Shown here piece by piece: positions 2,027 through 41,690 of a stretch of 64,000 nucleotides of DNA. The translations under genes were made by a program, and so were the position numbers. Where the stretch lies: contig QPGO01000025.1 in NCBI GenBank assembly GCA_008632985.1, forward strand, positions 186,001-250,000. Reading direction: 5' to 3'. The notes under the pieces were generated by a model. That model saw nothing but the letters and a program-made list of their open reading frames with translations, did not search any database and had not been told where the DNA came from. Numbering within the stretch: the first letter of the stretch is position 1; each line of letters begins with the position of its first letter. This DNA is from Psammoneis japonica (Eukaryota).

Positions 2027-2552
2027 ACGTCGTGTTCTTCAAATCTGGCGGAATCATCATCCCAAAAGATTTCCCGCCAAATTTGGTCGCATTTCACGGC
2101 TGAAAACACGTCTGAAAGATTGCCACAGAGAATGGTCACCAAGTTCAACATTACGACTTGCGGTATCGGTAGATGACAAGGACATTGGAACTGCCTGGCA
2201 TCATCCTTGTCGCTTACTATCTCAGACTAGCCACTGAAAATTGATTAACAAAAAGAATGAAGTCGCTTTGGATGAACCCGTTTCTGTTTTGCTGCTTTCG
2301 ACTTGATCTTGAGGCGGTAGGTAGAAGCTTTTGTTGTGTTGCCTCAAAAGCGCACCTTCCGGACTCGCAATTTCAGGACTGAAACAAATATAGCACCTAA
2401 ACAAGGGAAAGCTGGAGTGAACCAGAAGTTAAATGAACTGATAAGTTCTACAAATCGCGGGAGGTCGTGTTCCAAAGAACAGCAAGTGGAGATGAGCAAT
2501 GGCTAGAACGACTCGACGCCATGTCTACATTCGACGAACCGAACCGCTCTCC
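1750..2552 (+). repeat. Segmental duplication, copy 1 (partner ~29800-30599)
   Basis: Co-linear matches in both places, e.g. aaacaatcttgaatc..tttgcatcacccca, gagcaatggctagaacgactcgacgcc, cattcgacgaaccgaaccgctctcc. Confidence 0.95.
2257..2552 (+). pseudogene. Truncated 5' copy of the fibrillin/PAP gene
   Basis: Matches 30298-30599 with indels. Similarity stops abruptly after EPNRSP. Confidence 0.85.
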
Positions 2553-6219: not shown

Positions 6220-8361
6220 AGGGTCTCACACTTGTGCCTGGGCAGCCCAGCTGTGGCCCAGCCAACTCTGCCAACTGTGGCTGCCTGTCCCTCCTGTGGC
6301 CATTGTCTGTGACATGTTGAATCAGAGGGACAGCACACTCAATCACAATGTCAGAGGAACATGACAAGCATGCAACTGCCGCACACAGACACACACAAAT
6401 GCTGAAGGACAACATGCTGAACCAGCCAGACCACCTTTGCCTCTTCATGGTCCATCACATGTCACTGCTGTCCTTTCTTCCCTCTTGTCTCCTCTCACCA
6501 GCCTCCCGCTGCACTCACTTGCCAGCTCTGTTCCTGCCCAATGTCTTCCCTCCACATCTTCCACAGCTGAGATGGTCTGCAATGCAAGCTCTGCCTCCCC
6601 ACACCAGCCAACCAACAAACTTCCATCTCCCGCCCTTCTTGTGCAGGCACTTCCAACCCCCAAAGTGACCATGCCTTTTGCTGTCACTCCCTGGGACACA
6701 AAACCACCCTTTTCAATGCCACATGCAATGGCCTTTGTGCCATCCTCCAAACTGTTGGCCTGCTCTCCGGCTTTCCCTTTGTGACAGTGACTCCCTCCTC
6801 TGACACAAGCTCTCATGTCAAGAAAACACACAAGCAGCCATGAGCCATGAGCCACTCTCCTGCCTGCTCCCACCCCTTCCAGCTGCAAGACAATGCCTGC
6901 TTGCAGCGCAGAAGAGTCACTTTCAAATGGCAGCAAACAAGATGGTGACATCATTTTTGGCCTGATGGCTCCTTCTCAAAAAGCACCTGACACCAGCACA
7001 AGCAATGAGAGGCTGTTGTCATCACCAAGGCCATTGCACCAGCAGTCAGGCAGCAAAGGATGTTTGTGTTTCAGTTTCCTGGTGTCTTTGAGAAGGCAGC
7101 TGGTGAGTGCATTTGATCTGCCTGCATTTGATCTGCCTGAATTTGCACTTGTTCATGTCATTTGAATCGAAATCTAACTCCATCATGCGTTCTCAAATCA
7201 GATGCACTGGCACTTTTCAAAGGCAAACTGCCAGAAGGAGGGTTCAGCATTTCTGTTGCAAATCAACCACCTGCATTGAGTGCCAACAAAACAAGTCATC
7301 CAAGGACAAAGCATGGCATGACCAATGCAATGAATCCGCGAGCTCCAAGAATGATGCCATCAAGTTGGAAGTGGCAATGGAGAACCACAAGACAGAGCAT
7401 CACTTTGCTGTCATCCTGCAAAAGAAGATTGAGGAAAGATGCAGCTGGCGAGTGCAATGATGGCAGCAATGCAACCAGAGAGCAGCACCTCATTTCTAGA
7501 AATCTGTGAGACTGACAAAAATCAAAAACAAAAAAGAGATGTGTGTGCATTTGAGTCTCCAGCTCAAATGAGATTCAGGACAAAAAAGTGTGACTTGGGT
7601 GCAACATGAACTGCAGCATGTGTGTTGGAGACTGGACAGAGTTCTGGCCCATCAGAATGCAAGCTGCACAGATGTGTGACATGCACAACCAGAGTCAAAT
7701 CAAAACTTCAGTGGATCATCTGTTTGTTGTTTTTGGGTTGATTGATTGAGTTCCTGGAAATTGCATCCCAGTGCCAACCACCATCTTGGGGAAAATTGGA
7801 CGGCTTTTTTTGGCAGCATTTTGAGATTTTGCAAAGCTTGTTCCCTTGCCAAACTTCATGTTGGTCCTGTGTTTGTTGCAACAGAGCTTGTTTGCACAAT
7901 GCACAGTGGCCCCATGGCTTTTTTTATGAGCATTTGCTTGGCTCTCAGTGCCACGTCATCACAACGGGTGGGTGCTGGGTGCCAAACAATGCACATTGAT
8001 GCATGCCATTTTTGTGTGCCAGGCACCCTGCACAGCAATCAGCTGCAGGCACCTGGCTGCCCCTGAGTGCAAATGTGTGCTTGTCATCCTGGCATCTGAG
8101 TTGTGGGTGATGGGTGGAAGGGCTGGTTGTGGACATGTTGGCATCATGCACAGGGCATGTTGGCACATGGCTTTGGGCATCATGTGCATGGCATGTGGGG
8201 TGTGTGGTGCACAGCATGGGGCATTGTGTGCATGGTGCATGGCATGTGGCATGGGGCATTGTGCCCACATGGCACGCAGGGTCTCACACTTGTGCCGGCA
8301 CATGCCAGCCATGGAACTTTGCCAGCCATGGCCAGCCACTTGTCCTCCTGTGGCCATTGTC
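6220..8361 (+). repeat. Dispersed bipartite repeat, two copies
   Basis: agggtctcacacttgtgcc at 6220-6238 and 8278-8296; cctcctgtggccattgtc at 6290-6307 and 8344-8361. Each copy is preceded by ggcatg/ggcgtg-type arrays. Confidence 0.85.
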
Positions 8362-10564
8362 AGCACCATGCTCATGAAGCCATGCATGGCCAAGAAGCTC
8401 AAAGCTGCCAAAGCTGCGCTGGCATGTTTTCAACCCAGGCGGGTCACTCGGGGGGACAACACACAAGGTTTTCTGCACATTTCTGTCACGCAGAACTGTG
8501 CCCAATTTTCAAGCTCCAGCATTGCTTCACTTCTTTCTCATGCTGGTGCTGCCATGTGAAATTGTCACTTTCAAATGCAGCATGCTCCAGCTCAAAGTGG
8601 GAGCTTGCAGCACATGACACAATTGCTTTTGTCATCCATTGCATGTTTCGCACACACACACTTCTCTGTGTGTCCTCTTCCACAGAATTGTCCACACTCA
8701 CTGTTTTGCAAAGCCCAAGACTTTTTGTTTTCAATGCATTCACAGAAACAACAATGAGTGCCAAGTGCATTCTTTGATGTCTGAAAAATGTGCTTGGACA
8801 AACAAGAAACAATGTGCTTTAATGTCAGACAATTTCAATCATTTGCAAAGTTGCCTCTTGTTCTGTTGGTGACCATTGTTGACACATTCCTTGTTGCTCA
8901 ACAATTTTGCTGCAGAGGTTGCACACAGAATTCTGTGGACCCAACCAGCGTCACATGGATTCCCACCCCCCACATCTGGAGCACATCTTGCACACAGTCA
9001 CCTGCCAGGGCTGCAAAGGCAAGAATGAAGGCACTGATCAACTGTTGAGCTGGCAAGTCAATGTCAACAAAAGGGAACCTTGTTTGGCTGTGCTGCTTGG
9101 TGCAATTGCTTGGTTGCTTGCAGTGGCCATGGGTTGCCCAGAAGTTGTCAATGCAAACTTCAAACTTGCAGCACAACAGACACCCAGCAGCGCCGAGTGC
9201 AAAATCATGTGAGTCAAATGATTCACTCCAAAAAGCAAGATGAGCGGAGAGGTGAGAGAGATTGGTGAAAATGAAATCTCAGTCACAAAGAGTTGCCAAA
9301 TTTGCCACATCAGGAGCCCCACATCTTTTCTTCAATCCACCCAGGTGTCTTGCAATTTCCCACCATGACCCAGACATTCCAGCACACTTCTGCTGCTCCA
9401 ACCAGTGCAATGCCAGCCTGCTTTGCATCCAGGGAAATCTGATCCCTGTGTGGAATGTTGGCAACAATGTCACCATGCACATTGGCTGTGTGGTCAACCA
9501 TGTTGTTGAATGAGCATGCAATGCTTCACACATGCTTCACACATGCTCCGCACAAGCACACAAGCACAGTGAGTTCTCTCTCTTGCAACTTTGCTGCATG
9601 GACCAACAATCTGGCCCTTGATCCAACCATTGTCACCTCAGAAGTCAACTCAAAGAACTCCATTCTGTTGCAAGCTCACCAAATGCATCCATGCCACAGG
9701 CAGGACAACTGACCAACAACAACATCAGCAGCTCATTGACAACGCATCTGTCTGGGGCAAACTGCAACACATTGCCCTGCAATCCTGCTGTGTTGCTGTC
9801 ATCTGCACATGATGCTTGATGACGCAACAGTTGCAATCTTCACAGAAACACCTCCAGGCACAACTTCCAACAATTTGCCAAAATTCTTTGGTCTTGTGTG
9901 CCTCCACACCATGCAGCTCAATTTCAGACAACAGCCTTAGATCATCATGAAGGGAGAACATTGGCACAGTGGCAGACAAATGTTTGTGCACTTTGGGGCT
10001 CCAGACTCCTGCAATCTCCTGTGTGCCCTGCATTGAGCTGCACCTCTTCATCCACAGGTCCTGCCACATGGCCTCAAATGATGACAGATCTTCAGGTGAC
10101 CATGGATGAATGTGCTCCCTCCTCTCTCAATCTCCAGATGCATCAGATGCAGATCCAATGCATTGCAGCAGAGGTGTGGGTCTTGTCTCAAATTGCAGTG
10201 GCTGCCATCATTGAACCATTTGATCTCATCTGTTGCCACACTCAAAGAATTGTCTGGGACTTCTTGTCTTCTCTTGACCATCACATCTCCCAGCCTCTTG
10301 AACTTGTCCCAACAGTGCCACAATGCTGTTGCACTGTCATGTTGTGCAGTGCACTGTGCTCATCTTTGCCAGGCTTCCTTGTGATCATCAACGCTGTGGC
10401 CAATGTTTGTGCTGAAGAACAAAACGCCAATGGAACAAGTTGTGACCGGCCAAACCTTGCAGTGCATGACATCTTCCAGGTTTCAGGGTTCTTTCCTCAC
10501 ATTCTCATTGGATGTCACAAACAGGAAGCACTCCTGTCATGCCTGAAGTTGACAGCCCTTGATG

Positions 10565-12430
10565 GCTCACTCAAACTTTCAGAGCTTCTTGCACTGCAAT
10601 GGCAGTCCAGTCTTGCATGAAGTCTTCAAGCACACCATTGGCAGGAGAGCGCTGTGCTTTTAGACTGCCCTTCTCACTCTGATTGGTGACAAAAAGTGCT
10701 GGTGAACATTGAGTGCTCTGGACAACTTTCCAGCATTCCTGCACCCACCAGTCTCCAAAATGGTGCAGCACTCTTGTTGTCCTGATGCATGATGTTTTTG
10801 TCAACTGGGCGCCATTGATGCTCCATGAATGACTTTGTCCACAGGATCATGGCTGTTGCATCATCAATCCCTGCAAGTTCTGCTTCAGGTGTTGAGCTTC
10901 TGGTGTTTTGACATTGCCTGCACTGCTCCATTCTCCATGGTCACAACTCCTCCTGTGCAGCTCTCAAAGTCTGAACAGCGCACCTCAAATGATTCACCCA
11001 CATGCCACTTGACAGCTGGGGAGGTCATTTGCACTCAATGTGGCATCTTCATTTTGTGCTTGGGGCTCAAATTCTTGAGACAACAACTGGCTTTCCCCAG
11101 CGCTTGTTGGCAGGCTCTCTGACCCGTGCACACCACCATGCAGCAACAGCAGGGCGCACATCCACATGTGGCCTCTCTTGGACATGAATGGCTCCTTGGC
11201 CACCCACACATGGAATGTCTTTGCTTTCTTGGTTGGTGATCTCATGCCACCAGCATCAAACAGGTTCTCTCCAGCTGGCATCATGGCAGCATCTGCACTC
11301 TTGATCTCTTCTGAGAACTGATTGATCATCTTGTCAACACAGTTGGTGGTTGTGTTGACCTTCGCCTTTTGTTCCCTGTGGCTGCAGCCCAGGGTCCTTC
11401 CAAGGTGGCCACCACCCTTCTTTGCTCATGATGTTGCAATGACATTTTGCCACAGCTCCCATGCATCTTGTTTGGCCAGCTCAAAAGTTTGTCAGCGGTG
11501 CTTTTGGGTCCTCATTGTGGCTTGCCAATGGGTCATCCATGTGGAAACGCACAGTGTGGTGCTTGCCATTGACCACTCAATTGGCAACACATGGATTGCA
11601 TGGGTTGAACTCAAACTCTGTCTTCTTCAAGAAGCATTTGAAAAATTATTTGCACTGCAGCAGAGCTGCGGCTGACATGCTGTGTGCAGCTCTGATGACT
11701 TGGGTTCTTGCAGAGGACACTCTTCCCCTTTTCCACAACCACATGTGGTCCACATGGGTTGGGGTCAATGCTGGTTGGCATGTCAACCAACACTCCTGTG
11801 AGATCTTCATCATGATCTGGTCTTTGCCTTCCTCAGGCTCCAAGATCAAGGTCTGTGCAAACGCGCTCGGCACATTGGCGCTCATCACATCATGCTCTTG
11901 CTCAGCTTCAACCACAGCTGTCATCAGCATTCCTTCTGATGCTGCTGCCAGACCAGCTGACTCATCCTTGTCCAGCCATTCTCTGGTCAGTTTTCCACTG
12001 CAAAACATTTGCCCTTTCTCATGTTGCCATTTGTTTCTCCGTCAGGAACATCGGAGCAACCACAACCTTGGTCCTCTCACTCAGAGTCATGTCCTTCACT
12101 GATGCCAGTGCAAAGCACACTTGGCTGTGCAGTTGTTCAATCACTTTCTCTCAAGCATCATGCCCCCTCTGGCCAAATGCTTTTGGGCCTTCATGCAGCA
12201 AACATTGTTGAGCAAAGGAAACACCCTTTCCTGGTTGGAGTCGGTCATCAATCTCACAGCACGTGATTGTGCCAGCAGCACCATTGCTGTTTCTGCATTG
12301 CACTCAATGTTGTCCTTTGGATTGGGGCTCATGTTTGTTTGTAAATGATGGCAGTGTTGAGCTTGTTTTGCTCTTGTTCCATTTCATCAGAGTGTGCCAT
12401 CCCTGCAAATCAAACCTTCTTTTCCTGTGT
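10565..12430 (-). mobile_element. Degenerate Ty1/copia (diatom CoDi-type) pol fragment: RT and RNase H
   Basis: Remnant motifs across frameshifts: GKLTREWLDKDESA..ANVPSAFAQT..IMMKI (RT), PAGENLF..FHVWVAK, and NTRSSTPEAELAGIDD..ILWTKSFMEHQ..KNIMHQDNKSA (copia RNase H, canonical YQDNKS). Confidence 0.9.
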
Positions 12431-12565
12431 TCACATGATTTGATGTTGAAGGATGCACCAAAGGTTGCACCGCTCCAGTGGTTTTTCTGCCAGATGCAGC
12501 TCTTGCCTTTTCCTCCAATCTTTGTCCTTCCCATCTCTTGTCTTCTTGGGATTCATCATCATTTT

Positions 12566-12824
12566 CACCAAGTGGACTGAAGTGTGCTCTTTCGATTGCC
12601 TCTCAATCGAACATGTTTCCGGGTGTTGCACAGTGCGACACATCGGCAATGTGAGTGCCAATTTCACATTTCCCTTGTCCTGTGGATTTGATCAATAAGG
12701 CGTCATCAAAATCTTTGGCATCTATTTGGTCTACGGTAAATGTTGTGTCCTTGGTGAACTTTGTCGGGATTTTCTGAGCAGGTTTTTCGACCGCATCGGG
12801 AAATTTGAATTGCAAGCCAAACTC
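12566..12824 (-). pseudogene. rnr: Bacterial-type RNase R (RNB domain) fragment
   Basis: EFGLQFKFPDAVEK..TTFTVDQIDAKDFDDAL..GKCEIGTHIADVSHC..PG..D*EAIERA/TSVHLV matches the RNase II/R motifs DAKDFDDA, HIADVSHY and RATSVYLV. One stop, one frameshift and an apparent internal deletion. Confidence 0.85.
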
Positions 12825-14114: not shown

Positions 14115-15431
14115 GATGTGTTTTCATCCCAGGTGAGAAACTTTTGGACACATCACGAGGTTTTCTACGTGTTTCTACATGAGACGTACATTTAGCACCA
14201 AAAATCTTAGTAAAAAACGAGCTCCATGACAGTAAAAATGTGTTTTTCCATGTCTCGAACCACAAACCACAATTCGCGCAAACCGAAAATGGCACCATGC
14301 CGTCGCCATGAACTCGTCCATTCTCACACCAACGGATGTTGTGACTGAGAAGGCAAGAATGCCGAGACAGGTCAACAAGACAACGCTCAATGCGATGATG
14401 TGGTTGAAAATTTGATCTTTGTTTTTTGTTGTGCCTTGTGGACAGCCTTTTGACTCATGACATTTTTGATGCCTCTTTCTCTCTTCCTCAGCTTGCGAAG
14501 CAGGATTCTCATCAACGCGCTGCTCCATCCACTTGACACCGGATGCTGACAACGAAGAATGTTTCCATGACACGTTGCTGTGATTCTTGCAATGCATTGT
14601 CCGCACTTTGAGTCGTCATGGACGACGCTTTTGGGTCGCGCGACAACATCAGATTTCGCTTCCGACAAGAGAATCGTCATGTGCTCGGTTTTGAGGGTGT
14701 GTGAGGATAAAGAATCTCAGATGCAAGTGTGACAGTTTCATCATTGTAAAGCAGAACAATGCCATTGGCGACATCTCAGTGTTGCAGCCATTTTGTTTTA
14801 TTCTAAGATAGAACCAGTCATTTTGAGCGGTGAAATTTTGTCAACATTTCATCTTTAACTCTGCTTGGGCATGTCAAATCACATGACAACTGGACACACA
14901 TTGAACTTTGACGCCACTGTTTCAATCCCATTGTTTTATTCACTCAAGTGTCCCACACAGGTCGACAAATCAGTCGATCTTTGAAATGGCCGATCGCGCA
15001 AAAAAATCACGTGCGAAGTCAGTTCCCCCGATTTTTCTCATGCAAACAACAGAGTTAGAACGCCGTTCTTTTTTGGCATGAGCTCTTTGTGCAATGAACA
15101 ATGCGTGCATTCTTTCAAAGCAGTCAGATTCGGTGAAAGAAACAGCAGAATGGTCTCTCAAATGCACCAGAATGACAACAACGAGCAGACAGCTGTCAGT
15201 TTCACTCCAAAAAATGCCGCTTTCGAGACAGCGCTTTTCTTGCACACACCCTTCAACCAATGAGAATGACAGCTGGCTTTTCAAAACAAACATGTCTGTG
15301 GAAAGAAGAAACGAAAAATCGGGGGAAAGTCCAGTCAGATTTGCTCGCACAAAAAGCACGGCGATGGAAAAGGGACAGACGAAACGTCTCACCTCCGCAT
15401 GCGCGTTTCTCACCTGGGATGAAAACACATC
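14115..15431. mobile_element. Non-autonomous TIR DNA transposon (MITE-like, 1317 bp)
   Basis: Perfect 27-bp inverted repeats (gatgtgttttcatcccaggtgagaaac at 14115-14141 and 15405-15431) flanked by the 4-bp direct repeat GCTC (14111-14114, 15432-15435). Confidence 0.9.
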
Positions 15432-17705
15432 GCTCGAGATCTGCTGGACCCAAAACCTTGCTTCATCCCGCAGCACCAGCACAGATGACAAGACAGCCAA
15501 AAGGACTTTGCACAATGATTGGCTGCAAAAAGAGGAGTGCAATCACTGCAAAAAGCACAAAACAGAGCATCCCCGACAGCACATCTGCCAGAAAGAGCAT
15601 CATCCGCCGCAAGAGCCAGTGTCGGCGCAACGCCGCCACAACAAGATGAGAAGCAACATGGCCACGTCAACTTTGCTGACCCTGTGGGGAAATTTCCTTG
15701 GAGGGGCATTGCACTCTTTGTCATTGTCAAGGGACTTGAGTTCCAAAAGCTCCTGGTGCTCATGCAGCAGAAGGGGAGAGCATGTGGGGCAACCTTGCAG
15801 TGACCAGCCAACGGATGGCATGATTGGGAGCTCCTCCTTGAGGAGACCCCAGGCAAGTTGCTGTGACTGTGAGTTTCTTGTTGGAGCAAGGAGGCTCCAT
15901 TCTTGCTGACAGCTGAGTCAAAGGCTGCTGGGGTGACTTCACAAACATCCCCCCAACAGTGCATGCAGAGACAACTCTTGCAGCCAGCACGATGATTGCA
16001 GGGGGGTGGGGGGATTTTTCCACCTCTGGAAATCTTCCACACATCGCATTTTTCAGATTTTCTGTCTGTCATCTTCTATGCAAAATGGTCTGTGCACAAG
16101 CATCACTCCAGCCAGACCAGCAATGCCAGCTGCCACATGTGTGGGTTTGAGGGTTCCTCTCAGCACACCATGCAGTGCAAGTGGACAAGCCACTTGCTTC
16201 ACAGAGTTGTCATTCGTCATTCATGATGGCCTCAAATGCAACTGCACAATGGAAAATCTTTTTTTGCCACAGTCAATCTGCTGCTGCTTCATTGCTGTTT
16301 GCCAAACAAACGTCGCACACAGCAACCAAGATCAATCTTTCCCGCAGCATTTTGCTGTTTCAATTCAGGGTGAACTCTCCTTTGCCATGCAGAAAGATGT
16401 GCAAAACAAGTGCCAGATTGTTGGGTGCAACTAAAAATGACACACCATGGTGCTGCTGCGATTGCTTCCATTTTTTCAACATGCTGCACCCTTGTCAGGT
16501 TCACCGCCTGTGCCGCTGCAAGGTGGGCAACTCAAAGAGACACCACAGCATGCGTTGAAGATCAGCTTGAACTGCTTGTGGGTGCCATGAGCCTTGCAGC
16601 AATGCTCTGACATGGTGCAGAGAAGTTCAGAGTCAGTGAGTGCCAGCTCAGACATGTTGGTGTGAAAGCACTGCCTTTTCTGTGGCAAACTGCCTTGCGA
16701 CACTTCAAAAGAATGGAGAAATTTTAAAATGACCAGTTGGAGGTTGCTTGGAAAGAAGGGTGGCACTTTTGGAAACATTGCTGTGATGCATTGTGATGCA
16801 CTTCAAAAAACAATCCAGAACACAGACTTGACACAAGTTTGCACACAACTTCCACATTGAAAGCGGGACTTTGTTTTTTCCTTCCACTGTTTGCCAAGTC
16901 CTTGAGATTTAACTGGGGTGTTCTCTCAAGGTGCACTTGGCTGCAGTGGGAGAAAGGAGCAAAAGACTTTGACAAGCACTCAGTGCTGCTCTGTTGCTTG
17001 TTGTTTTTCACCCAAAGAACCAGGCAATCTTTTGTGACAAGGCACACAAAGATTGGAAATGTGGTGTTGCAGGCATGGCCAAGTTTTTTGATGACACAAG
17101 TGGGCACCAGTGGTTTTGACAACCCAAATGCCAGCAGCAAGACACTGAGCATTTGTGTTCTGGCAGTCAGCCTGGTGGTGAACTGCCGCAGGCACGTGTG
17201 AGTGCTGCAGCATTGTCAGTGGGATGCCAAGCACTGGCATGGTGCATTCCAACAGTCAGCTCCAACTGCACCATGCATGGACAAACTTCACAACATGCTC
17301 AATGGGTGTCAGTGGCTGTGTGAAATTCCCGCTGCAGATCATGTGTGATGCCCCAGACACTGGTGTGCATGCGGTGCTTCTTGCTTGAGCTTGGTGTTGT
17401 TCGTTGAACCAAGTCTGACCACAAGTGTTAAAAATGTGCAGATTTGCATGATGACAATTTGTCAAAATGTTGCAAAACATTTTTGTTGTGTGATGAAAGG
17501 CCAACCTCTGGTTGCAAGTTTGCCACACCAATGTTGCAACAACTTGTTGAGAATCATGCATGATGTGTTTCTCTGTGTCCACATCACCACATCTGCCTCC
17601 ACCTTGTTGCCATGTGCCAATGCGTGATTGCATTTCCACACAATCCTTGGTTTGCCAATTTTCACAAACATCATTTTAAATGAGAAAAGCATTTCATCGG
17701 TTGAG

Positions 17706-18949
17706 TCAATCCCTTGTCACGTCTGCAGTGCAATGACCGAGTGCTGTGTTAACTGTGCACACATTTTCTTGCCACAACTCTCTTGAACTAAGCCAACGAT
17801 CATCATCGGACTCGTCTCCATCGGACTCGTCTCCTCCGTCATCCGTTTTGCCTTTTGCGCCTTCCTCCTGCTCATCGTCGTCACTGTTGTTGTCCCTGCT
17901 GCTCTCCACCATCAGGCTGTTCATTGCCTTCACCTCATCCGCATCACCGGCCGGTGCTTTCTTTTTCTTCTTTTTTGCTTCTCCGGACTTCTCATGCTTG
18001 CTTTTCTTGATCTCCGCATGCCACTTTTCAAACTCCTTGCCCTCCTTGGAGTCTCTGTCTTTCGTCACCTCTTTGCATGAATCGTTGGACCAATTGATTC
18101 CGTCGTCTCCCCAAGACACTCATTGTTTCTTTGGCTTCGTGTGCCAAGGGGCAGGCCTTGTTTCTTTGGGCTCCATTTCCTCACCCAATTCTTCCACCGC
18201 CTCCTCCTTGTTCCTGCATGCCCACACCTGCCAACAATTCTCCATGGCTGACAGCGCCAAAGCTTCGTCACCGACCGCAAACAACTGTGAGACTTTGTGC
18301 GTTCCCAGTTTTGACGGTGCTGCTCCGCGCCTGCTTTTGCTTGGTTTGAGGCAGGATGTGATCACAGAACCACTTGTGTGCCTGCTTGTTCCTTTGTTTG
18401 CCGCCGGTGACAGTGTCTGGGCCAAACGGATCCCATGTCGGCACAAACGGGATGTCATTCTCTTCACTCTTGTCACGGCTTGACTTTTTCCTCTTTTTCC
18501 TCCTGTCTGCCGCCTTGAGTTTCTTTTCTTTTTCCTTTCCCTCTTCCTTTGGTGACAATGCCCACATGGACAAAGCATCACCGTCATCTTCTTGTGAGAT
18601 GCGCGCAACTCTCGAATCACACACATTGGTCACTTGACTTGTGGGCCATTGCCTCCGCCCCAATGGCTGAACACACCGTGTTTCTGCGATTGTCAATTTG
18701 CCTTTTTACCACCTTTTTTGCCCATTCCTCCCAAGTTCCTGACCAATTTGAAGTGTCCATGTTGCCGCCAGCAATCTGTTTCTTGACAAACATTGAGACG
18801 CTCCCATTGCTTGCCAATTCTGATGGACTGAGAAACTTCACCTGTGGAAAGAGATCATTTCCAGCCACCTTCTCTGCTTCTGATTTCAATGCACCATGCG
18901 CTGCCGGCGTGCCTGTTCTCTTCAACACTGCCTGAAGTCTCGGGCTCAT
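17706..18949 (-). pseudogene. Degenerate accessory ORF of the type seen beside diatom Plavaka transposases
   Basis: Frameshifted pieces: LFPQVKFL..RRNTVCSAI; KWFCDHIL; GDEALALSAMENCWQVW; WGDDGINWSNDSCKEVTKDR. Divergent from the transposase. Recognised from memory of the family, not from a search. Confidence 0.6.
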
Positions 18950-19457
18950 TGGCTTGACAGTCTCATTTTTTTTCTCTTCTTTGCCGGTTGTGCTGGAGAC
19001 GACATCTTGATCTTTTCACGGCAACAATGAGAGGAGTGGCACTGTTTGACAGTGCAACCGTCGTTTGGGTCGTGTTGAGACAGCCAGGCACTCCATTTTT
19101 CTCTGTGACATTGCACAAGTTGTTGTCAGCAACATTGAAATTTGAAAACACATTTGCACACAACAACAAACAGCCCAACTTGCTTTTTGACATGGCTGTC
19201 ATTGCGTTTCAACGGAGATGATGTCCTGCATTTTGACAGCAAATAAAAAGCACAATGTTCATTGTGGATGCCAGACAAAAAATCAAAATGCAGACATGCC
19301 ACACCTGTGAGAATCATCCCAATCTGGAAGACAATGTGATGTTTGCCAATTTCCCGCCATTTTTTTTGTGTTGTTCCTTTTTTCCCTTCTCATCCACAAG
19401 ACAAGGATGACGAGCATGAGTCTTGATGAAGGCCCTGTCAACATTGTCTGATTTACA

Positions 19458-22400
19458 ATGGATGGAAACCCTCTTCTCTGTCCCGGTTGTGGCCAAAGTT
19501 TTTTGCGAACAGCCTGCCATTGGAGATGCTCACCGACGTGTTGCTCAGTTGCCCAAGAGTTGCAAACCCAAGATCCAATCCCAGATCAAAGCGACATTCC
19601 TGCCACAACAGAGGGGCCACCTGAAGAAAGTGGCAGCTCTTCCTCTTTGTCCTCTGATGATGACGAATCCCATCCGAGGCAATCAACTTGCAGCAGATTC
19701 CCAAGATCTTCAACGAGTGATCCGAGCAGCAGCCCCTTGTTCCCCTCCCAGGATGACGCACCACACGGAATGGACGACATGTCCTCCATTTCATCAAACC
19801 ACAGCATGCAAGGAGTTGAACTTTTGGCAATGAACGATTTGGATGTTGGCGGTGGTCAATCCTTTGCTGCAGTGTTGGACGTGACAATGGAGGAGGAAGA
19901 GGACATTGACGATGAGGACCAACGTTTGGGATCAGGTGTGACGCTCCTGCAGAAGAGGCCTTGGCTTCTGCTCCCTCTTTGACTAATCTTGACGGAGCTT
20001 GCGCAGAGTTGTGCAAGAAGCTCATGGACACACGTGGTGCTCCCCTGGAATTGCACAACCACATTGTTGATTTCATTGAGAGGCACACTGGCAACAGCAA
20101 CATTGAGCTTGGCACAGTTCTGCCAAGGAGAAAAGAGTTGATGCGTGCCTTAACCAAGCATTTCCCTCTTCCACCCAGCGAGTCCATTCCTGTCACTCTA
20201 GAAACCAAAAATTTCAAAACCGGTTTGCCAAAACGAGTGTCAGTGCCAAGATGGGATTTCACAAAGGTTTGGGAACAGTTTTTGCTCGATCCTCACCTGT
20301 GGTGCAGCAGAGAGAACATGGCCGATCCAGACAATCCTTTTGGGAAGTGCAAAGCGAAGGGACCCAGATGACAAGTGCCTTTTGGCGGGTGAGTGGCACA
20401 GGCGCAGTTGCGAAGAACGGATGACTGACCCAGAGAAACAATTTCTTGAGTGCAATGTCATTTACCTCAACAAGACTGGCAGGACACAAGGGATGGGATC
20501 ATGTTGCGGAGAACCAGTGATCATGACCTCTGCGCATGTTGCCTTCAACAAATGGTCAGACAAGAGTGTCTGGAAACCAATTGGTTGTCTCCCGGATTTG
20601 GAAAAGATGTCGTCATCTGCGGCAAAGAATCTCTCAAACAATCGCAAGGCGGAGAAGGGACGCTCGTCAAGAGACTGCCACACTTGCTTGCGTGTCATTT
20701 TGGAGCCACTTTTGGAAGTCATGAGAAAAGGAGGCATGAAAACATGCGTGCGACGAGGGGATGAGATGCGACACCTCCACGCAATCCCGCTGATCGTTCT
20801 CATCACAGGAGATGCAAAAAGCGGCGACTGTCTCGTCGGACGATGCGGAGGTCACAACTGTCGTCAACGTTGCTGTCGTTTTTGCCTCACTGGCTTCAAC
20901 AAACTGGACGACCCATGGATTGAATGCGAGTTATCCGAGGACTGGATCTCCACCAAGTGCAAACCAAGGCCAACGACGACAACAGATCAGACCAAGAAAG
21001 GAAGCACTGGTTGGGCATCTTGCATCACCTCAAGCAACACAACGCACCTGCCAACTGTCTTTTTGAGGCAGACTTTGGCACACAACCACTCGGCATTGCC
21101 CTTGCGACAGCAAGCAACATGATGCATCTCTTTGAAAACGGCACCTTGAAAAGGGCAATCAATTCATTTGTAGACAGCATGACACCTGTGGTCGCAAGTG
21201 AGGTGGACAGCATGGTGGAAAGGATTTTCAGCAATCACCGGTCAACTTGCAAAGCATCCTTTTTGCGAACAAACTTCAAAGGAGGAGCAACGTCGCTTGC
21301 CTTCCTCAACTCTCACCGCTGGGCTGGAATGGCTTTTGTTTTCTGCCTTCTCCTGTTGACCAGCGAGGGACGAAACGCATGTGAGTCATGCTTCCTTGAC
21401 GAGGACGCAGACGAACCCATTGTTCCAGAGAATCGCAAGATGCCCAAAGTGAACTTTGAGAGCCACTGCCAACCTAGTGAGTGCTTGAACGACTCTGACA
21501 ATGAAAGGTCGGAGGAGTCCAAAGAGGGTGACTGGGATGCAAATGAGGATGAGAAAGAGGAGAGTGAGGCTGAGGATGGTGACGACAACCAAAAAAAGAA
21601 AAAACACAAGGGAAAAAGACTCAACTGCAGCGTCTGGCAATTCATTCAATTGCTCGAGGACCTTCTTGTCTTCCACGCATGGTGCAGGCTGGGCGATCCA
21701 CCCATCACAAGCGCAACTCCCAGTTCATCTGTTCAGAAAACAAACAAGAAAATCCGTCTCCTCATTGACCGGACAGTGCAATTCGTCCCGCGAACAGAAG
21801 GATGCGGGTGGAAGCTTCAAAAGCTTCATGAAACACTCCATCTCCCAGTGTTTCTTTGTTGTTGCCGACATGCGATGAACTTTGATGCAGGCTTGGGGGA
21901 ATGTCTCTTGAAAGACTTTTTCAAGCTGCCGTCATCTGCCGCACAACAACGCAACCTCGACAGTTTTCTGAAGCAGGTCGTGTCGCGTGTGGAGGACCAA
22001 ATGAGGCTCAACGCCGCAATTTCAGCCAACAGTTGGATTTTGCCAACTGGGAAAAAGGAATCATCAAGAGTCAGGACGGACAATCACACACTGGGAGGAA
22101 GTGCGTTCACTCTCACCTACAACCGAGGGATCGGCGCTGTGACGTTTGAGTGGAACAGCGAGCATGCTCGTTGCCAAGTTCATCCTGTGTTGCCAAACTT
22201 CATGTCGGAAAAGTGGGAGGATTGTGTTGGTGAAGACAGTGAAAATGCACACCTGACTTGCAAGACAGAGTTTTGCAATGCAACGGGAGGGATGCGCACC
22301 GTGCGCACCCCGATTGCAAAAGCGAAGGACCATGGCATGACTTTGCCTGTGTGACCTTTGGCACACGAAAGGGCGATCAACAGTTTCCCTCCCGTTTGCT

Positions 22401-22730
22401 GTGTTTCTTCGAAAAGGAAGACACAGGATTGATTTTTGCAGTTGTCCATCCAACTGCTTGTCAAGCTGACCAGAGAACTGTGAGGCAACGGCATCAGCAT
22501 GCAGACTTGGTCAGTCGCTGGCAGCTTGATCACAAACGAAACAACTGGCTTTCAACGCCTGAGAAGACTCAGTGCTCACCTGAGTTACGTGTTGTCCCTG
22601 TCGAAGCAATTGGGGACAATGTTTTGGTTCATGAAGAATGTCCAGGAGTGGCAGAAGCGCAAGAAAAGGCCCCATTTGTTTGGGCTGCACAGGACAGAAG
22701 GAAGTGTTGGTCAGATTTGTTTCTAAAATG
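19458..22730 (+). mobile_element. Degenerate Plavaka-type transposase
   Basis: N-terminal CxxC..H finger, then DPDNPFGK, GEWHRRSC, IYLNKTG..EPVIMT..WKPIGCLPDLE, ITGDAKSGDCLVGRCGGHNC..CRFC, MMHLFENG, WKLQKLHETLH..NFDAG.GE and HRAHPDCKSEGPWHDF. Several frameshifts. Confidence 0.8.
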
Positions 22731-23859
22731 GGGCACGCATGTCAATCTGTCATTCACTCACAGTGTGTGCATTTTTAGAGCAATTGCTTCCTCATGGATT
22801 CTATGCAGTGTCCACTTGCATGGTCCATTTGGTCATCCTGCGCCATGAAATGTTCCCTGGCAGCCACAATCGCCTGCTGAAAGTCGGCGCTGTGGTCAGG
22901 CTGGTTGACAGCCACCAATTGTGCCTCGATTTGCAATGCCAACTGCAGGACCCTTTCTCTTGCCACGGCTTCTTCGTCCATGGCCCGGATCGCGGTCCAT
23001 GTCCCTCCCCGCATTTGATCTGTGCCTGGCCTCAGATCACACAAAGCTTGCCACTGTCGCTGCAAGGCAACGTCTTTCCTTCTCAAATCGTCGAGGGCCT
23101 CGTGGAGCAACGTGATTGCATCCTTCAGGATGCGCTGCGGCTGTGTTAGATGTCGCCTTCAAAGGAGTGGCACGGCATGGCAGTGGATGGATTTGTCGAT
23201 GCTGTCAATCGCAGATTGCTCCCTCTCCACTGCTCTGTTGGCGTCTGTGTCAGAATTTGCCCTGAGGCTTCTCAGAAGCAACGTCAAGTCACAGCTGTGC
23301 AGCATGTTTAGCCTGCATTCTGATTTTTGATGTCCCGCAATGGAGATTGGGAGCCCCAATTCTTTTGCATCAAATGCGTTGCCGTGAAGAAAGCGTTGGA
23401 AACTCATTTCCGCTTCGCTGTGATTTTCCACTGCAACAACACAGTCGTTGTCTGAACAGTGTGTCTCGATCGATGACTTGATGCACTGCGCACAGATGTG
23501 CTTAAATTCGCAAGTGGTTGTTGCTTGATTTAACAAAGCACTGTCAAGTGCGGTCGTTGCAGCCACAACGGCACAACGGGCTTCTGCCATTGCTTCAGCC
23601 GATCTTGACACAGCAGCCTTTGCATCCTTTGCTCTCTGTTCCTCCGAACAACGAGCAGCGTCAGCGTGAACAAAACCATCAACTGTCTCCATCATCCGGC
23701 GACGGAAATCCTCAGCAGCGGATGGACGGAGTTCATCTGACATGGTTTTCTTCTAATGCTCTGATTGTTGTGGTCATGGGTCCACCATTGCATTCACCAG
23801 ATTGGTCATGCGTCAGTCACAAAATTCTGGTTTCTGTGGAAATGTGCCAGAGTGGTGCA

Positions 23860-23940
23860 TGGGAGAAGTCACATGCGCGCCTGGTGGGATTTGGAGTTTT
23901 GCACACAAAAACCCACCAGACGTGCATGTGACTTCTCCCA
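23860..23940. repeat. Hairpin-forming inverted repeat (29-bp arms, 23-nt spacer)
   Basis: tgggagaagtcacatgcgcgcctggtggg (23860-23888) vs the reverse complement of 23912-23940; 2 mismatches. Confidence 0.92.
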
Positions 23941-26319
23941 GAGAAATCCTGCGTGAGATTGTGCCGGGAAAGGGCAATGCGGAGTGTGGAATTGATGGAA
24001 GAAAACATTGTGAAAACATGCATCAGGAGAAAGGGTGCATGCACTGGAAAACAACATGGATTTCTACACACACGTTAAGGTGCGTGAAGAACATGTGGGT
24101 GCCTTCAAGTGACGCATGCGAACAATCACAAAGAAACATTCGGAAATGGGGACAGCATGGAGAGAAGTCAGAAACATGGATCCAAAACAAAGTGACACAC
24201 GATGAAGGCGACGGTGACGGGATCGATGAAAAAGAAGGATTCGGATGGAAAGACGCCGGAGACGGTGAAAACAGGCGGCGCCAAGACGAAGAAGGAAGAG
24301 AAAAACAGGACAGGAAAAATGAAGAAAGAGAAAAAGAAGCAGACGACACAATGTCAAGAGGGGAGCAGCGATGCGATTCTGCGTTTCGAGGGACCTCTTC
24401 CTCTCGATGATGTTCACCCAAATGCAAGAAATGCAGTGTGGCTTTTTTGGAACGGTGACGAGGAAACATCCAACGCGGCAGCGGCACACTTGAAATTCTT
24501 GCAAGAGAGCAGACAAGACATGCATGGAATGAAGAGGACGATGTGGACGAACAGGCCAATTGGAGCACAGTTGTTGACCAAACAATTGGTGCACACTTTG
24601 CATGATGAAAATTTCATTGCATGCAATTGCAGTGTTTGGCTTGTCGTTGAAGATCGTCAGTTGTTGTGAAAAAGGCTGAGCATAAAAATTAAAAAGCATC
24701 TGTGTTCAAACATGAAGAACAGCAGGAAATTAACAATTGACCAAATGACAAAAACCATCATGTGCAGATGAGTGGATTTTATGACACAGCAACATGTTTT
24801 TGTCATGTGTGCAGACACTGCGATGTCGTGCACTCTGATGCGTGGTGCAAGTCTGTTGGTGCAAAATTCCAAACTGGGTCATTGTTGTCACTGTCTCTGA
24901 CATCAAAATGCAGCATTGCTCTGCAAGCTGGGACACATCACTCATCAGGGGCTCCCCCGCCCTTGCTCTGTTTCTGACACGTTGAAGCAAGATTCGTTGG
25001 ATGGAATGACACACAACAAGAAATGAACAGAAAAATGGAAACAGTGTGTCCACTCACATTGTTGCAATGTCTTTTCTCAGCACATCTTGAAAAGTTGAGA
25101 AGAAAGTGCCAACCGGCAGCTTGTCGCAGATGCCGCAGCCTTTGGCTTTTGCATCGGCATCGGGTGTGACATGTTGAGATGAGTTGGCTGCTTTTTCGGC
25201 AAACTCTGCCTTGAAAGCAAGCAGCAGCTCAGGATCCAATGCAGCACATTCACAGTTGGAGATTCTGGGTGTGTGCTCCTTTGTCTCCCTTCCTTGGCAG
25301 AAATGTGCCAGCAGACGCAAGATGATGAAAGCTGTTGCTTTCGCAGGCTTCAGTTTGCGCGATCTTTTCGATCCATCGAAGGATGATTCTTCCCCCAAAT
25401 GAGACAAACTGAGCTCACCATCATGATGTCAAGTGCTTGCAGTGGGCCTGTCAATGGCCTCTTCAGGTGGTGCGCTCACGCGTCGCTTGCCATGGCGGGT
25501 GATGCGGCCGGTGCTCATGGTTGTTTTTTGCGGAAGAATCTTGGAATCTGGGAGTTGCATGAAATGTCAAAATTTTCGTTTTTCCCTGCAAAAAACGCAC
25601 AGAATGTCAGAGAGACCTGCCTGCACGCGAGTGCCGCCACAGTCTGCACGATGCTGCGAAAGTTTGTGCACTTGCCACCAAAACGCTGCTCGCACTTTTT
25701 GCCAGGGGACATGCCACAGACACACAATGTTGCATTTGGCTGCAGGACAAATCCTGTGTTTTTGGGGCTCTGTTTGATTTGACAAAATGTCGAAATTCCA
25801 TGGAAGGTTTCTCAACAATTGCCTTTTTTCCCAACCAGTGCTGAGACAAAATGCCCCCAGAAATGCAGGTGGTTGTGTCTTCACCAGACCCCGCCAAAAT
25901 TTCTCGTTGAGAAGACAACCGACTGGATGGAATGAGAATGTTTAAATGATGTTGCACAGTGCGTGAAAAATGACAACCTGCACTCACTCAATTGGGTTGG
26001 CATGGTGACATCAAGCACTGAAATGAACGACAAAACGGTGCGATAATCGATGATGACGACACCTTCTATCGGTGCCTGCCTGTGCGCTCATTTTCTACTG
26101 TATTCAAATTTGTATATCCATACATACATCATAAGTAGTTGCTGTGAGCACATCACGTTGTCACGGCGTTTCTGCACGCATGATGATACGCATGGCACCG
26201 TACGTACGACTGCAAGAGACGCCGTTGAGTTCCCTTCTCGATCCCGAACTCCGATTTGAACCAGTCACGACTGTCTCAACCTCATCGCTTCGTGCGATAG
26301 TACAGATTTCAAATTCAAA

Positions 26320-26910: not shown

Positions 26911-27064
26911 CTCTAAAAGGCCTAACATCAAAAGATTGTTTTTAGACGTTGGAAACGAATGAGAACCCTGCCCGATAATACATGGAACCATCAATCCACC
27001 TACGGCAACAAAAACACTGCTGCACGGCAATGGCGCGGCATCAATCATTTTAGCACAGTGTAAA

Positions 27065-29363: not shown

Positions 29364-29759
29364 ATGAAAGATATCTTATGTTTCGAAATAGAATTTAGTG
29401 CTCGTAGAGAAGAGGAGTAATAGATGTTTACACGGCTTTTGACTAACAGTTGTCAAGTAAGCTGACGATCGGAAACCTGAAAACCAGAACGAGGGTTACG
29501 ACTTCAACGCAAGATGTTCAAGAATGTGCTTGCCCGGATTCTTATCTTTCCCCCCTCCCTTTTTTGTTGGTTTTGGGTGTATGCAATTAATCAGTATAAG
29601 GCGTCCATAAAACCCCATCTTATGCATGCAGCAGACCTTTTCTTCGCTCCTCTCTCGCGTTGCGTGTGAAAGCTTTTTTTCCGATCTGAAGATAAAAGGT
29701 AATCCATCAGTTCTAGAATCTGTAAAAGTGGGTATCCGGAATTATGTGCAGAAGTATTC

Positions 29760-30020
29760 CTAAAACGCTCGGTCGAGCGGGAAGGACGACTCATAGACAT
29801 TGTAAAGGCAGCAGTCCTCAAAACAATCTTGAATCATTTTTGCATCACCCCAGCAGCAATCCTTCATGATGTGACCCAGCTGCGCAATCTGCCCTTGACC
29901 AAGTTGAGGCTGCTTTTCAGTCGTCCGCTCCTTCCTGACTAGCACAAGCTCTCGACTCTCGATTGTGACACCTCTTCCTCCAAGACTTTGTGGTCATTGT
30001 TTTCATTTATGTCAATCGTC
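29760..30020 (-). pseudogene. Degraded, truncated paralogue of the 1487-2026 gene
   Basis: QIAQLGHIMKDCCWGDAKMIQDCFEDCCL vs QIAQLGHVMKDCYWGDAKTIQDCFKDRYL. Confidence 0.85.
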
Positions 30021-30297
30021 ACAGCGTCTTCTCTTGGAAGGTGGCGCAAGCCATTACCGATGTGCTGTCGGCACTTGTCGATGTCGAGGCGCTGGTTGTG
30101 GTGAGTGGCGGTTTTCCCGCCAAATTTGGTCGCAGTTCACGACCCAAAACACGTTTGAAAGATTCCCGCCAACAATGTTCAACATTGCGGCACGACTTCT
30201 GCGGTGCCGGTAGATGACACGGGCATTGGGAACCGCTTGGCATTGTCCTTGTTGCTTGCTTTCTCAGATTGGCCACTGGAAATTGATCAATAAAAAA

Positions 30298-31053
30298 ATG
30301 AAGTCGCTTCGGATGAACCTGTTTCTGTTTTGCTGCTTTCGAGTTGATCTTGAGGCGGTAGAAGCTTTTGCTGTGTTGTCTCCAAAGCGCACCTTCCGGA
30401 GTCGCAATTTCATGACTGAAACCAATATAGCACCTACACAAGTGAAAACTGGGGTGAACGAAATCCAGGAAAAGTTAAATGATTTGATAAGTTCTACAGA
30501 TCGCGGGAGGTCGTGTTCCAAAGAACAACAAGCGGAGATTGAGCAATGGCTAGAACGACTCGACGCCTTGTCAACATTCGACGAACCGAACCGCTCTCCC
30601 CAAACGGGTGGAGAATGGATTGTACAATACACCACAGCCCCCCCTCCGTCAAATGGAGTGCTTGGACCATTCAAGGGAGAAGCTCGACAAGAAATTGACA
30701 TGGAGAAAGGCACGTATAGGAACATTCTGATTGTGCCTCCAAACGAATGGTTGGGTGCAGTACTGGACGCGACATGGGAAGAATGGGATGGAGACTTACT
30801 CCCTGATGAGGGTGGTATTATTCCAACTAACCAAGAGACAAAGCAGAGCGGAGACTTGGGTGCTACCTGCTGGAAAGTGACGTTTGAATGCCTGAGTATC
30901 AAATTGTTTGGCTTTCCAATCGTTACCCAAAAGTTTGACAATGTCCAACGAATCTGGAGAACAACTTATTTGGACGAGAAAAGAAGAGTCGTAAGAGCAG
31001 GACGAACAGGCCTCCGAGACGATGAAATGATCTTTTACATGACTCGGGCATAG
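30298..31053 (+). CDS. Plastid lipid-associated protein / fibrillin family
   Basis: Signal-like N-terminus ending VEAF; LISSTDRGRSCSKEQQAEIEQWLERL..GEWIVQYTT; C-terminal WRTTYLDEKRRVVRAG. Confidence 0.85.
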   Translation: MKSLRMNLFLFCCFRVDLEAVEAFAVLSPKRTFRSRNFMTETNIAPTQVKTGVNEIQEKLNDLISSTDRGRSCSKEQQAEIEQWLERLDALSTFDEPNRSPQTGGEWIVQYTTAPPPSNGVLGPFKGEARQEIDMEKGTYRNILIVPPNEWLGAVLDATWEEWDGDLLPDEGGIIPTNQETKQSGDLGATCWKVTFECLSIKLFGFPIVTQKFDNVQRIWRTTYLDEKRRVVRAGRTGLRDDEMIFYMTRA

Positions 31054-39879: not shown

Positions 39880-41690
39880 ACAGGGCCCTGCATGCCGGCA
39901 CGGGACTGTAGTGTGGCAGCATCATGAAGGCATTGTAACTCTGTCACATCTGCAGCACGACTCCTCTTGGGGGGGGTCTTTTCTTCAGCCATGTGTGACG
40001 AGGGGGATCGGCTTGAGCATCACCTGGGATGAGGAATGAAGCAACTCACTCTCACACATGCTGTGTCAATGGATTGAAAACATTTTGCCAGCTTGTGTGT
40101 GGCCCCCCCTCTCGGGGTGTGTTGCCCGCCCAACTGAAGGACACACAATCCTCGTGCCAAGTGAGGCATTGAGCGGGAAGAAGCAATGAAGAGACAGGAC
40201 AACGGCACCACTGTGTGTGACAATTCTTTTAGTTTGATGGCAGTGGCATCAGTTTGTTGACCCATGGGGGGTGATGTGGTGGTCCACCATGAGAACCTTG
40301 TTTGGTGATGCACAAAATTGTTGCAAGCTGGGGGTCGAGCACCAGAGGACCAAGTCATTTGAGCAAGGCATTGCAGGGCTCATCCTCCCCCCCCCCCCCC
40401 CCCCCAAGGGATCCATTGCTTGGATGAATGGTGGGTTCATCATGACCATTGTGTGGCACAAATTCTGCATCACTGTTGGAGTTTTTGGGAGGCTGGAGTC
40501 TTGCGTGTGTGCTCGCCTGTTCCCTTGCACTGTCTTGGTCACAAGAGTTGACAGATGTGATGAGATTGCCAACAAGAAGTTGTCAAGGTGCCATTTCAAG
40601 TTTCATTCTCTCCCTGCAGACCACTTTCCCACCCCCTCCAAGCACAAAAACATCCACGCCATTGCTCTTCATGCCACAAAAAGTGCTGCAGCAGCACACC
40701 CCAATGGACTCAATGAGTCAAATGAGCACCAGCATGTGCCAGAGTCTTGTCGTTGTTTGGATTGAAACAAACCCTCTTGGACAGCACTGTGCAGTTGCTT
40801 GAGTTTGTCAAGATCAGTTTGCAATCTCTGGCTGTCATCTCCTCTTGCACAAGTGCGTCTCTTGCACACATGAGTTGGGTGGTCTGCACAAGACTTGTGC
40901 ACCGCTGCAAATGACCTGATTTTTGAAATCCCAGACCCGAGGTGAGAGAAAGCAATGGATGGGCATGCAGCAAGATGGGCACTGCAATGTGCAGCAAAAG
41001 CAACTCAAACTTGAACATGAGATGATTTTTGCTTCATTGCTTGCTGGCTGCCTGCAGCATCATTTGGTGCACATTGGGATTTGCAAAATGTCAGGATCTG
41101 CCTGCTCATGACTTGACAACAACTGACCACAAAAGCCCTTGCCACTGACTGATGGTGTCTGCAACATTGCACTGTCTGTTGTTGCAGACATTGCTGGTTT
41201 TGGGCCAAAGAGCACAGCATGTCCAGAGAAAGATGACAGCGTGTCAAACAAAAAGGAGAGGCTGGGATGACAACTCATCAAGTCCACCAGTGGTCATGTG
41301 GTGACACCAATCAATCCTGTTGGTGATTTGTCTTGACTGCTGTGAGCAGCTGAACTTCTGTTGTTGCAATTGTGCAAAGTCTGCAGTGCATTGCTTTGGA
41401 CATCTGGAAAAGATGAGACAACATCTCAACCCAGCTCACAGTCAAGAATTGGAGTCAAGTCTGGATGCAGGTCTTGCAACAAACTCTTGTGATCGCTTGG
41501 TGTCATTCTTGCAAAGAGAGTGCTGCATCATCGAAGCCATTGAGCACATGTTCTTGTGGTGCACTTCTCCCTGCAACAGCCTGCGAACAGAGTGCCGTGT
41601 ATGGCAGTGCGTTGTTCGTGGTGCGAGGCCCTGGCGTTGGAACATGCCGTTTGTTGGCGTTTTCATCAACGCGAAACGGAACATCAGGAG
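39880..41690. other. TpA/CpG-depleted island C; unclassified repeat relic
   Basis: Same composition as the other islands. No protein motif recognised. Confidence 0.75.

Follow-up and report, generated by a model that had tools for sequence, protein, structure and literature searches.

Introduction

Repeat-induced point mutation (RIP) acts on duplicated DNA and on transposon relics, where it changes C to T, mainly at CpA, and so creates TpA; the frequency of TpA rises, and both copies of a repeat are mutated over its whole length and not beyond it. RIP depends on a RID-type enzyme and takes place at a premeiotic stage. Among deaminases, APOBEC3 enzymes change G to A, ADAR/ADAT-type A-to-I editing prefers a U before the edited A, and relatives of the tRNA adenosine deaminases have a TA/UA preference. 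Background on RIP in Neurospora crassa and other ascomycetes is found in the part of PMC7296669 on which we draw, and background on the hypermutation of retroelements by APOBEC deaminases in the corresponding part of PMC4866542. DNMT4 enzymes, relatives of the fungal RID, are described in the portion of PMC9998398 used here as widespread in diatoms and of unknown function; for the present purpose they are context only, since RID-related enzymes act on cytosine. In our literature search, no TA-removing process was found described for diatoms or for any other alga.

The locus described here lies in a 64-kb window, by which we mean the whole stretch of DNA that was analysed. The window contains four islands that are nearly devoid of TA and, outside them, a direct duplication in which a dead piece of one gene, gene A, together with its promoter region, reads TG or CA at most of the sites where the other copy reads TA. 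How does such a locus compare with the described systems? Like RIP, it shows transitions that keep to one dinucleotide, in a duplication as well as in relics of transposons, together with wrecked reading frames and a strong dinucleotide skew that has sharp edges. The direction of change is the opposite, as the transitions here are A:T to G:C at TpA, and in the gene A half of the duplication TA falls from 12 to 6 while TG and CA rise. An initial annotation of this DNA had likened the process to RIP, a comparison that fails on this point, since TpA is destroyed here and made by RIP. In addition, only one half of one copy is altered, whereas RIP alters both copies at full length, and the host is a plastid-bearing, diatom-like alga and not a fungus. 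The decay of 5-methylcytosine at CpG offers a second likeness: a palindromic dinucleotide goes to TG/CA on both strands, and the islands are CpG-poor as well. The step that the gene A fragment has lost, however, is TA, and CpG is not significantly affected there: transitions are found at 6 of 41 CpG positions versus 13 of 132 other G/C positions (p = 0.28). Deaminase hypermutation is similar in being a context-specific transition storm in genomic copies of elements, but it works on RNA, or on cDNA in the course of retrotransposition, and marks one strand, while the fragment is a DNA-level duplicate changed on both strands. Finally, ordinary pseudogene decay would also give a lost start codon, frameshifts, and a ratio of non-synonymous to synonymous changes of about 4 to 1; the locus departs from it in context dependence, with a rate of loss at TA that is at least 4 times the rate at other A/T sites.

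The window and its TA-free islands

The window resembles the nuclear DNA of a plastid-bearing, intron-poor alga, and its gene mix is one that we take to be diatom-like. Pfam models identify a PAP_fibrillin protein, a chlorophyll a-b binding protein, an HSF DNA-binding domain, a calcium-dependent kinase, and an APS/PAPS reductase fused to thioredoxin. Sequencing data came from three coded runs of one sample, and the depths quoted are those of contigs of the public DNA run. The islands are as follows.

3966..12695, TA-free island 1
14234..25942, TA-free island 2, high-copy (summed contig depth 5,000-26,000 versus about 50 for single-copy DNA), with a transposase-like relic
20202-22351, transposase-like relic within island 2, with a weak Plavaka hit and five homologues (P0029-P0033)
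40231..41599, TA-free island 3
56875..64000, TA-free island 4, which continues past the end of the window

Together the four islands have 76 TA in 28,924 bases (observed/expected 0.04), with TA-less runs of up to 1,572 bases, and their edges are sharp, being less than 100 bases wide. Observed/expected ratios in the islands are 0.34 for CpG, 1.77 for TG and 1.70 for CA; in the rest of the window they are 0.96, 1.19 and 1.13, with TA at 0.57. The island frame at 20924-22351 has a single Tyr in 476 residues, compared with 1.6-3.2% Tyr in its relatives. At the 13 Tyr positions in the comparison with its closest homologue, P0029 (62% identical), there are six Cys, one His, one Tyr and five other residues, so that a change of TAY to TGY/CAY is polarised for the island too.

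Adjacent TG/CA doublets, in which one sequence reads TG and the other CA, are seen between the window and related contigs at 11909-11910, 17120-17121, 20146-20147 and 27838-27839, and between the two copies of the duplication at 1771-1772 and 2202-2203. Such doublets are what one would see if a single palindromic step had been converted independently in the different copies, with TA and CG indistinguishable as the source.

Several other features of the window may be recorded here. A perfect 86-base tandem duplication occupies 37604-37774, just beyond the long open frame of the HSF-domain gene (end at 37339). One contig skips a 1.33-kb stretch at 14098-15430, flanked by perfect 28-base inverted repeats (14114-14141 and 15405-15432), and this stretch is probably a polymorphic small DNA element. 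A second stretch, of 2.28 kb (25487-27769), is missing from one contig of the DNA run, which has 25 other letters instead. It is bounded by 39-base inverted repeats (25550-25588 and 27721-27759), and its interior has normal TA from 26044 onward; if it is a young mobile element, TA has not been stripped from it. Run X2 shows GT..AG joints at 28365-28455 and 28589-28685 that mark introns of a class-3 lipase gene, and on the basis of these joints the run behaves like RNA, though its record does not describe it so. Cover by X2 is absent on 29677-30343, a gap from which we draw nothing. Two contig records of run X1 are island stretches with zero differences from the window; as this run may be the assembly's own source, the match is not independent support against an assembly artefact. 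One X1 contig that spans 27770-30350 with 25 differences from the window is probably the other haplotype.

A duplicated head-to-head gene pair

When the window was searched against itself by blastn, a sole long repeat pair was found, consisting of two direct copies of about 800 bases that lie about 28 kb apart and are 79.3% identical over 828 columns. The duplication covers a head-to-head gene pair. Gene A is intact in copy 1, which also carries the 5' part of gene B in a dead state; in copy 2 it is gene B that is intact, and the 5' part of gene A that is dead.

1750..2552, copy 1 of the direct duplication (self-blastn and alignments)
29798..30599, copy 2 of the direct duplication (self-blastn and alignments)
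1487..1960, minus strand, gene A, an intact 157-codon frame at copy 1, from a conserved family without a Pfam model
29798..30010, minus strand, dead 5' fragment of gene A in copy 2, cut off at the duplication edge
30298..31053, plus strand, gene B, an intact open reading frame at copy 2 (Pfam PF04755 PAP_fibrillin, E 4.7e-09)
2258..2552, plus strand, dead 5' fragment of gene B in copy 1, with indels of +4, -9 and -1; the internal control
1961..2257 in copy 1 and 30011-30297 in copy 2, shared head-to-head promoter/leader region (alignment)

Contig depth over 28343-31000, an interval that covers copy 2, is 54-70, like that of single-copy DNA and unlike the thousands seen over the islands, and neither tblastn nor self-blastn found a third copy of the segment in the window. 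The segment is thus non-transposon DNA outside the islands, as the initial annotation had it.

Is gene A a real gene? It has no Pfam match, and a word-indexed search at near lengths gave no match; an exhaustive search found 28 homologues at E<=0.001, the best of them 50% identical. In the family alignment C62, D69, Y93, W94, G99, N101, G104 and L106 are invariant, and because the homologues share these residues we regard gene A as a real gene. Family motifs are CYWG, DC, VDDGI, YYW.AYFGGNPTGYLL and ENCDGDFIW, and one relative has an N-terminal WGR domain.

In copy 2 the ATG of gene A has become ATA, and the fragment carries a frameshift and a stop. Its 70 codons show 26 non-synonymous and 6 synonymous differences, and 2 codons are touched by gaps. 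The replacements include Y7H, Y52C, Y67C and D69Y, so that each of the three Tyr codons of gene A within the duplication has changed, to His, Cys and Cys respectively; the change of KDCYW to KDCCW noted earlier is upheld by codon comparison of the copies. The dead fragment of gene B in copy 1 has frameshifts of +4 and -1, with 15 non-synonymous versus 5 synonymous differences.

Inside the otherwise diverged spacer, a 22-base block (2070-2091 and 30112-30133) is identical in both copies, and its first half resembles an E2F-type site. A metagenome scan with 20 bases of the shared block found one contig, L001, which was rejected as an orthologue: blastn was empty, and the contig has no wider similarity, only a shared short motif.

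TA steps exchanged for TG and CA

The gene A half of the duplication, 1750-2257 of copy 1, was aligned with copy 2 by MAFFT and by a gap-penalised pairwise method. Copy 1 has 12 TA steps in this half, of which copy 2 reads TG at six and CA at three on the plus strand, meaning that adenines were changed on both strands. The sites found in both alignments are as follows.

29802, 29809, 29854, 29992, 30011, 30206, 30258, 30271 and 30288, the nine secure TA to TG/CA sites (positions in copy 2)

Of the remaining TA steps of copy 1, that at 2170 is unchanged, that at 2152 is ambiguous, and the third has become TT. The initial annotation had also listed nine sites, and eight of these hold in the two alignments: T1761>C29809, T1806>C29854, A1942>G29992, A1961>G30011, A2165>G30206, A2216>G30258, A2229>G30271 and T2246>C30288. 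Its other site, A2153>G30187, is not secure, as it adjoins a 5-base indel and the TA is kept in the more parsimonious alignment; a further TA to TG site, A1754>G29802, was absent from its list. Changes in the opposite direction, put earlier at about two, number three (C1958>T30008, G2003>A30056 and C2249>T30291). The first of these is the loss of the gene A start codon, and is therefore certainly a TA gained in copy 2. The earlier observation of an excess of TA to TG/CA changes is confirmed, and the excess is somewhat stronger than was claimed.

In the gene A half of copy 2, 6 TA are left in 501 bases, three of them new, for an observed/expected ratio of 0.19. The fragment has the third lowest TA among 311 non-island windows of 500 bases. 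The same half of copy 1 is already TA-poor, at 0.33, and has a TG plus CA count of 78.

Direction of change

Which copy is derived? The homologues of gene A are at most 50% identical to it, so that changes were polarised at the level of protein and not of DNA. Homologues side with copy 1 at Tyr52 (TAC; 10/13), Asp69 (14/14), Thr58 (10/13), Arg66 (8/14), Arg31 (8/12) and Ile30 (7/12), and copy 2 departs at all six residues. Codon 47 shows the opposite pattern, with the Ile of copy 2 in 10 of 13 homologues and the Val of copy 1 in one, a sign of at least one change in copy 1 as well. Among the nine TA sites the outgroup polarises Tyr52 only. Four further sites fall within the coding part or at its limit, where copy 1 is under constraint, and the other four (2165, 2216, 2229 and 2246) are in the shared spacer, where there is no outgroup for polarity and copy 1 may instead have gained the TA. 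Copy 2 is taken as derived from the presence of family residues in copy 1, Tyr52 among them, and from the lost ATG, the frameshift and the stop in copy 2. An ancestral copy 2 would have undone the earlier interpretation, and the outgroup speaks against it, with the invariant Asp69 found only in copy 1. As judged from these sequence comparisons, the direction in the coding part is from TA to TG/CA.

Excess of TA transitions over chance expectation

A per-site test that takes copy 1 as the ancestor finds transitions at 9 of 22 TpA positions versus 16 of 178 other A/T positions (odds ratio 7, p = 0.0003). Transitions at TpA are thus more frequent than at other A/T sites, where equal rates would have told against the initial annotation. 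The test conditions on the state of copy 1 and is inflated by doing so, a rare dinucleotide being often young; in the reverse direction the per-site rate is also raised (3/10 vs 16/185, p = 0.06). For this reason both lineages were simulated from a mixed ancestor, the observed counts of each type of substitution being placed randomly and the share of change assigned to copy 1 ranging from 0 to 50%. The context-free expectation is 2.4-4.7 sites, versus the 9 observed, with p < 0.0002 when the share of copy 1 is 0%, 0.0008 at 10%, 0.002 at 25% and 0.028 at 50%. When polarity is disregarded, the total of 12 sites versus about 7.5 expected is marginal (p 0.04-0.08), and the asymmetry of 9 versus 3 is not significant when taken alone (two-sided p = 0.15).

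How strong a preference for TpA would be required? A rate multiplier at TpA, updated in the simulation as sites change, gave p values of 0.002-0.006 at 1.7x, which is a rough equilibrium estimate from the dinucleotide frequencies of non-island DNA, 0.012-0.028 at 2.5x, and a borderline 0.05-0.07 at 4x. The best-fitting multiplier is 12x or more. The nine sites therefore exceed what either a context-free or a mildly biased null provides. The burden of multiple testing is small, given that the hypothesis was set beforehand by the islands and that the window has only one long duplication. A sample of nine events at one locus can carry no more than this.

The gene B half as an internal control

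In the gene B half, 8 of 9 TA are kept and one is lost by transversion, with no TA transition in either copy. TA transitions accordingly stand at 9/11 in the gene A half versus 0/9 in the gene B half (p = 0.0003). As the gene B half is less diverged, a fair comparison has to turn on the positions of its five A/T to G/C transitions. None of the five is at TpA, an outcome with a probability of 0.14 at a multiplier of 4x, 0.045 at 7x and 0.011 at 12x.

The halves differ in other respects. Overall divergence is 60/373 in the gene A half versus 20/275 in the gene B half (2.4 times), identity over reliable columns is 84% versus 93%, and the gene A half is richer in indels. Transversions are alike (16/373 vs 10/275, p = 0.84, with a wide interval), whereas transitions of every kind are 3.5 times as frequent in the gene A half (44/373 vs 10/275, p = 0.00015). 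Only 9 of the 44 fall at TA sites, and a TA-only process does not account for the rest. Either the gene A half is effectively older or freer, or it has been exposed to a broader transition-prone process.

What, then, of the trigger? It had been suggested that duplication or loss of function can set off a partial dose of the process that made the islands. The gene B half, equally duplicated and equally dead, has kept nearly all of its TA, and this control argues, though not overwhelmingly, against duplication or loss of function being sufficient. That either one alone accounts for the targeting of the gene A fragment is not supported.

Discussion

The reading we prefer, at a probability of roughly 0.45, is that a dose of the island process, specific to the fragment, hit the dead piece of gene A. 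An 800-base stretch across the gene A/gene B pair would have been duplicated, with one working gene kept in each copy, and the gene A half of copy 2 would have become a dead fragment. That fragment would then have received TpA-directed A:T to G:C transitions on both strands, TA going to TG or CA, in a run that would have taken away nine of some 12 TA steps and replaced the three Tyr codons by codons for Cys or His. The changes would be of the same type as the erasure of TA in the islands, at a lower dose. As to chemistry, our guess is that adenine, or a modified form of it, is deaminated where it stands in the palindromic TA step. We infer that the island process, and not a general bias, was the agent, and that its action is on DNA in place.

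How close is the kinship with the islands? The fragment and the islands have in common the change of TA to TG/CA on both strands and the conversion of Tyr codons to Cys and His codons. They are unlike in that TA in the fragment is at 0.19, and not at 0.08 or less, and in that the fragment is at single-copy depth and not high-copy. The fragment thus has two of the five tested features of the island process, and misses its dose and its copy number; in the fifth, the loss of CpG that is the second mark of the islands, the difference seen in the fragment is not significant. The earlier term "partial dose" is a fair one for a ratio of 0.19 against 0.04 in the islands. That the changes are directed at TA stands as first described; that they are the work of the same process as in the islands is plausible, the odds being roughly even. 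Two other origins were considered and rejected. Leakage from the neighboring island is made unlikely by the normal TA found both in the stretch that separates island 2 from copy 2 and in the spacer at 29300-29797. An edited retrocopy, or A-to-I editing at the RNA level, is contradicted by changes on both strands of a segment that includes a promoter and the starts of two opposed genes, which cannot be a retrocopy.

Might TpA instead be hypermutable throughout the genome, with selection keeping TA in working DNA and the dead fragment displaying the neutral spectrum without any targeting? Such a constitutive bias we consider unlikely, though there are several points in its favor. Outside the islands TA is low while TG and CA are high and CpG is near 1, and the reverse direction of change at the duplication is likewise enriched. 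Moreover, among the listed contig differences in non-island DNA, 5 of 11 transitions are between TA and TG/CA, versus about 17% expected (p = 0.027), which hints at a wider TpA bias; the sample is very small, and some of it comes from a dense cluster next to an indel. Against a constitutive bias, non-island TA is at 0.67 outside long ORFs and at 0.49 in coding-like DNA, and from this greater richness outside ORFs it appears that ordinary DNA here is without strong TA decay. The spacer to the left of copy 2 (29300-29797) has 30 TA in 498 bases, a ratio of 0.75, the dead gene B fragment has lost no TA by transition, with its 0 of 5 at TpA being improbable at multipliers of 7x and 12x, and the multiplier of 1.7x estimated from equilibrium is rejected.

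A second possibility is ordinary pseudogene decay aided by chance, in which the gene A half is older, or was free in both copies, and the reader's eye was primed by the islands. There are only nine events, the asymmetry and the polarity-free excess are respectively insignificant and marginal, the gene A half is the more diverged and the richer in indels, and its copy 1 is itself TA-poor. When dinucleotides are compared over reliable columns, however, TA is the outlier among all 16, having changed by transition at 9 of 11 sites (0.82); the next, AC, is at 0.40, and most are at 0.1-0.3. With up to 25% of the changes placed on copy 1 the context-free null fails at p <=0.002, the hypothesis and the single long duplication were given beforehand, and every one of the three Tyr codons went to Cys or His. 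We judge this explanation rather unlikely, slightly more so than a constitutive bias.

The initial annotation pointed toward a RIP-like scan triggered by homology, in which duplicated DNA is mutated at TA. On such an account the gene B half escaped, or gene conversion with the intact gene B as donor later overwrote it, and its greater similarity is what later conversion would give. The TA-poor patch begins at the edge of the duplication, where the ratio passes from 0.75 in the flank, for which there is no ancestral sequence, to 0.19 in the patch; the island edges, too, are as sharp as if limits of homology and not chromatin had set them. RID-related DNMT4 enzymes occur in many diatoms, according to the part of PMC9998398 cited above. 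These points are outweighed, in our view, by the lack of a TA transition at any of the 9 TA in the dead gene B fragment of copy 1 and by the small number of candidate TA losses in copy 1 overall, at most 2-3. The similar transversion divergence of the halves argues against a much younger gene B half, within its wide interval, and RID-type enzymes target cytosine, not adenine, with RIP running in the opposite direction. A scan of this kind seems quite improbable.

That polarity is reversed, copy 2 retaining ancestral TG and CA while copy 1 gained TA by C to T change at CpA/TpG as in classical RIP, is very improbable indeed, for although the many TG and CA of copy 1 could yield several TA by background G/C to A/T change, four noncoding sites are without an outgroup and codon 47 records a change in copy 1, it is copy 1 that has the family's Tyr52, the 157-codon frame and all of the invariant residues, copy 2 that has lost the ATG, Asp69 and the frame, and the demonstrable process in this genome, that of the islands, removes TA.

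What does a fragment-specific dose of the island process, if that is what occurred, say about the alga? The islands alone cannot give the direction of change, nor can they tell change in place from change timed to transposition, since their progenitors are gone. With copy 1 as an ancestor-like reference, and with one site at least polarised by an outgroup, the duplication is direct evidence for change from TA to TG/CA in ordinary DNA that has never passed through RNA. A broader proposal, possible but in our view doubtful, is that the alga runs a mutator that converts TA to TG/CA in place at the DNA level, that silences transposons, that can also be aimed at silent host DNA, and that is independent of transposition, with the gene A fragment as its first polarised record. 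If such an adenine-directed mutator exists, it would be a counterpart both of RIP and of CpG decay, and the silencing of transposons would leave kilobases of DNA without TA. If the link to the islands holds, it would point to a DNA-level process that has a cost to the host and can damage gene duplicates, as in the fungi that have RIP, and the duplication would be a compact locus at which to test for the trigger. Should the link fail, the fragment would still serve to calibrate the neutral spectrum of this genome.
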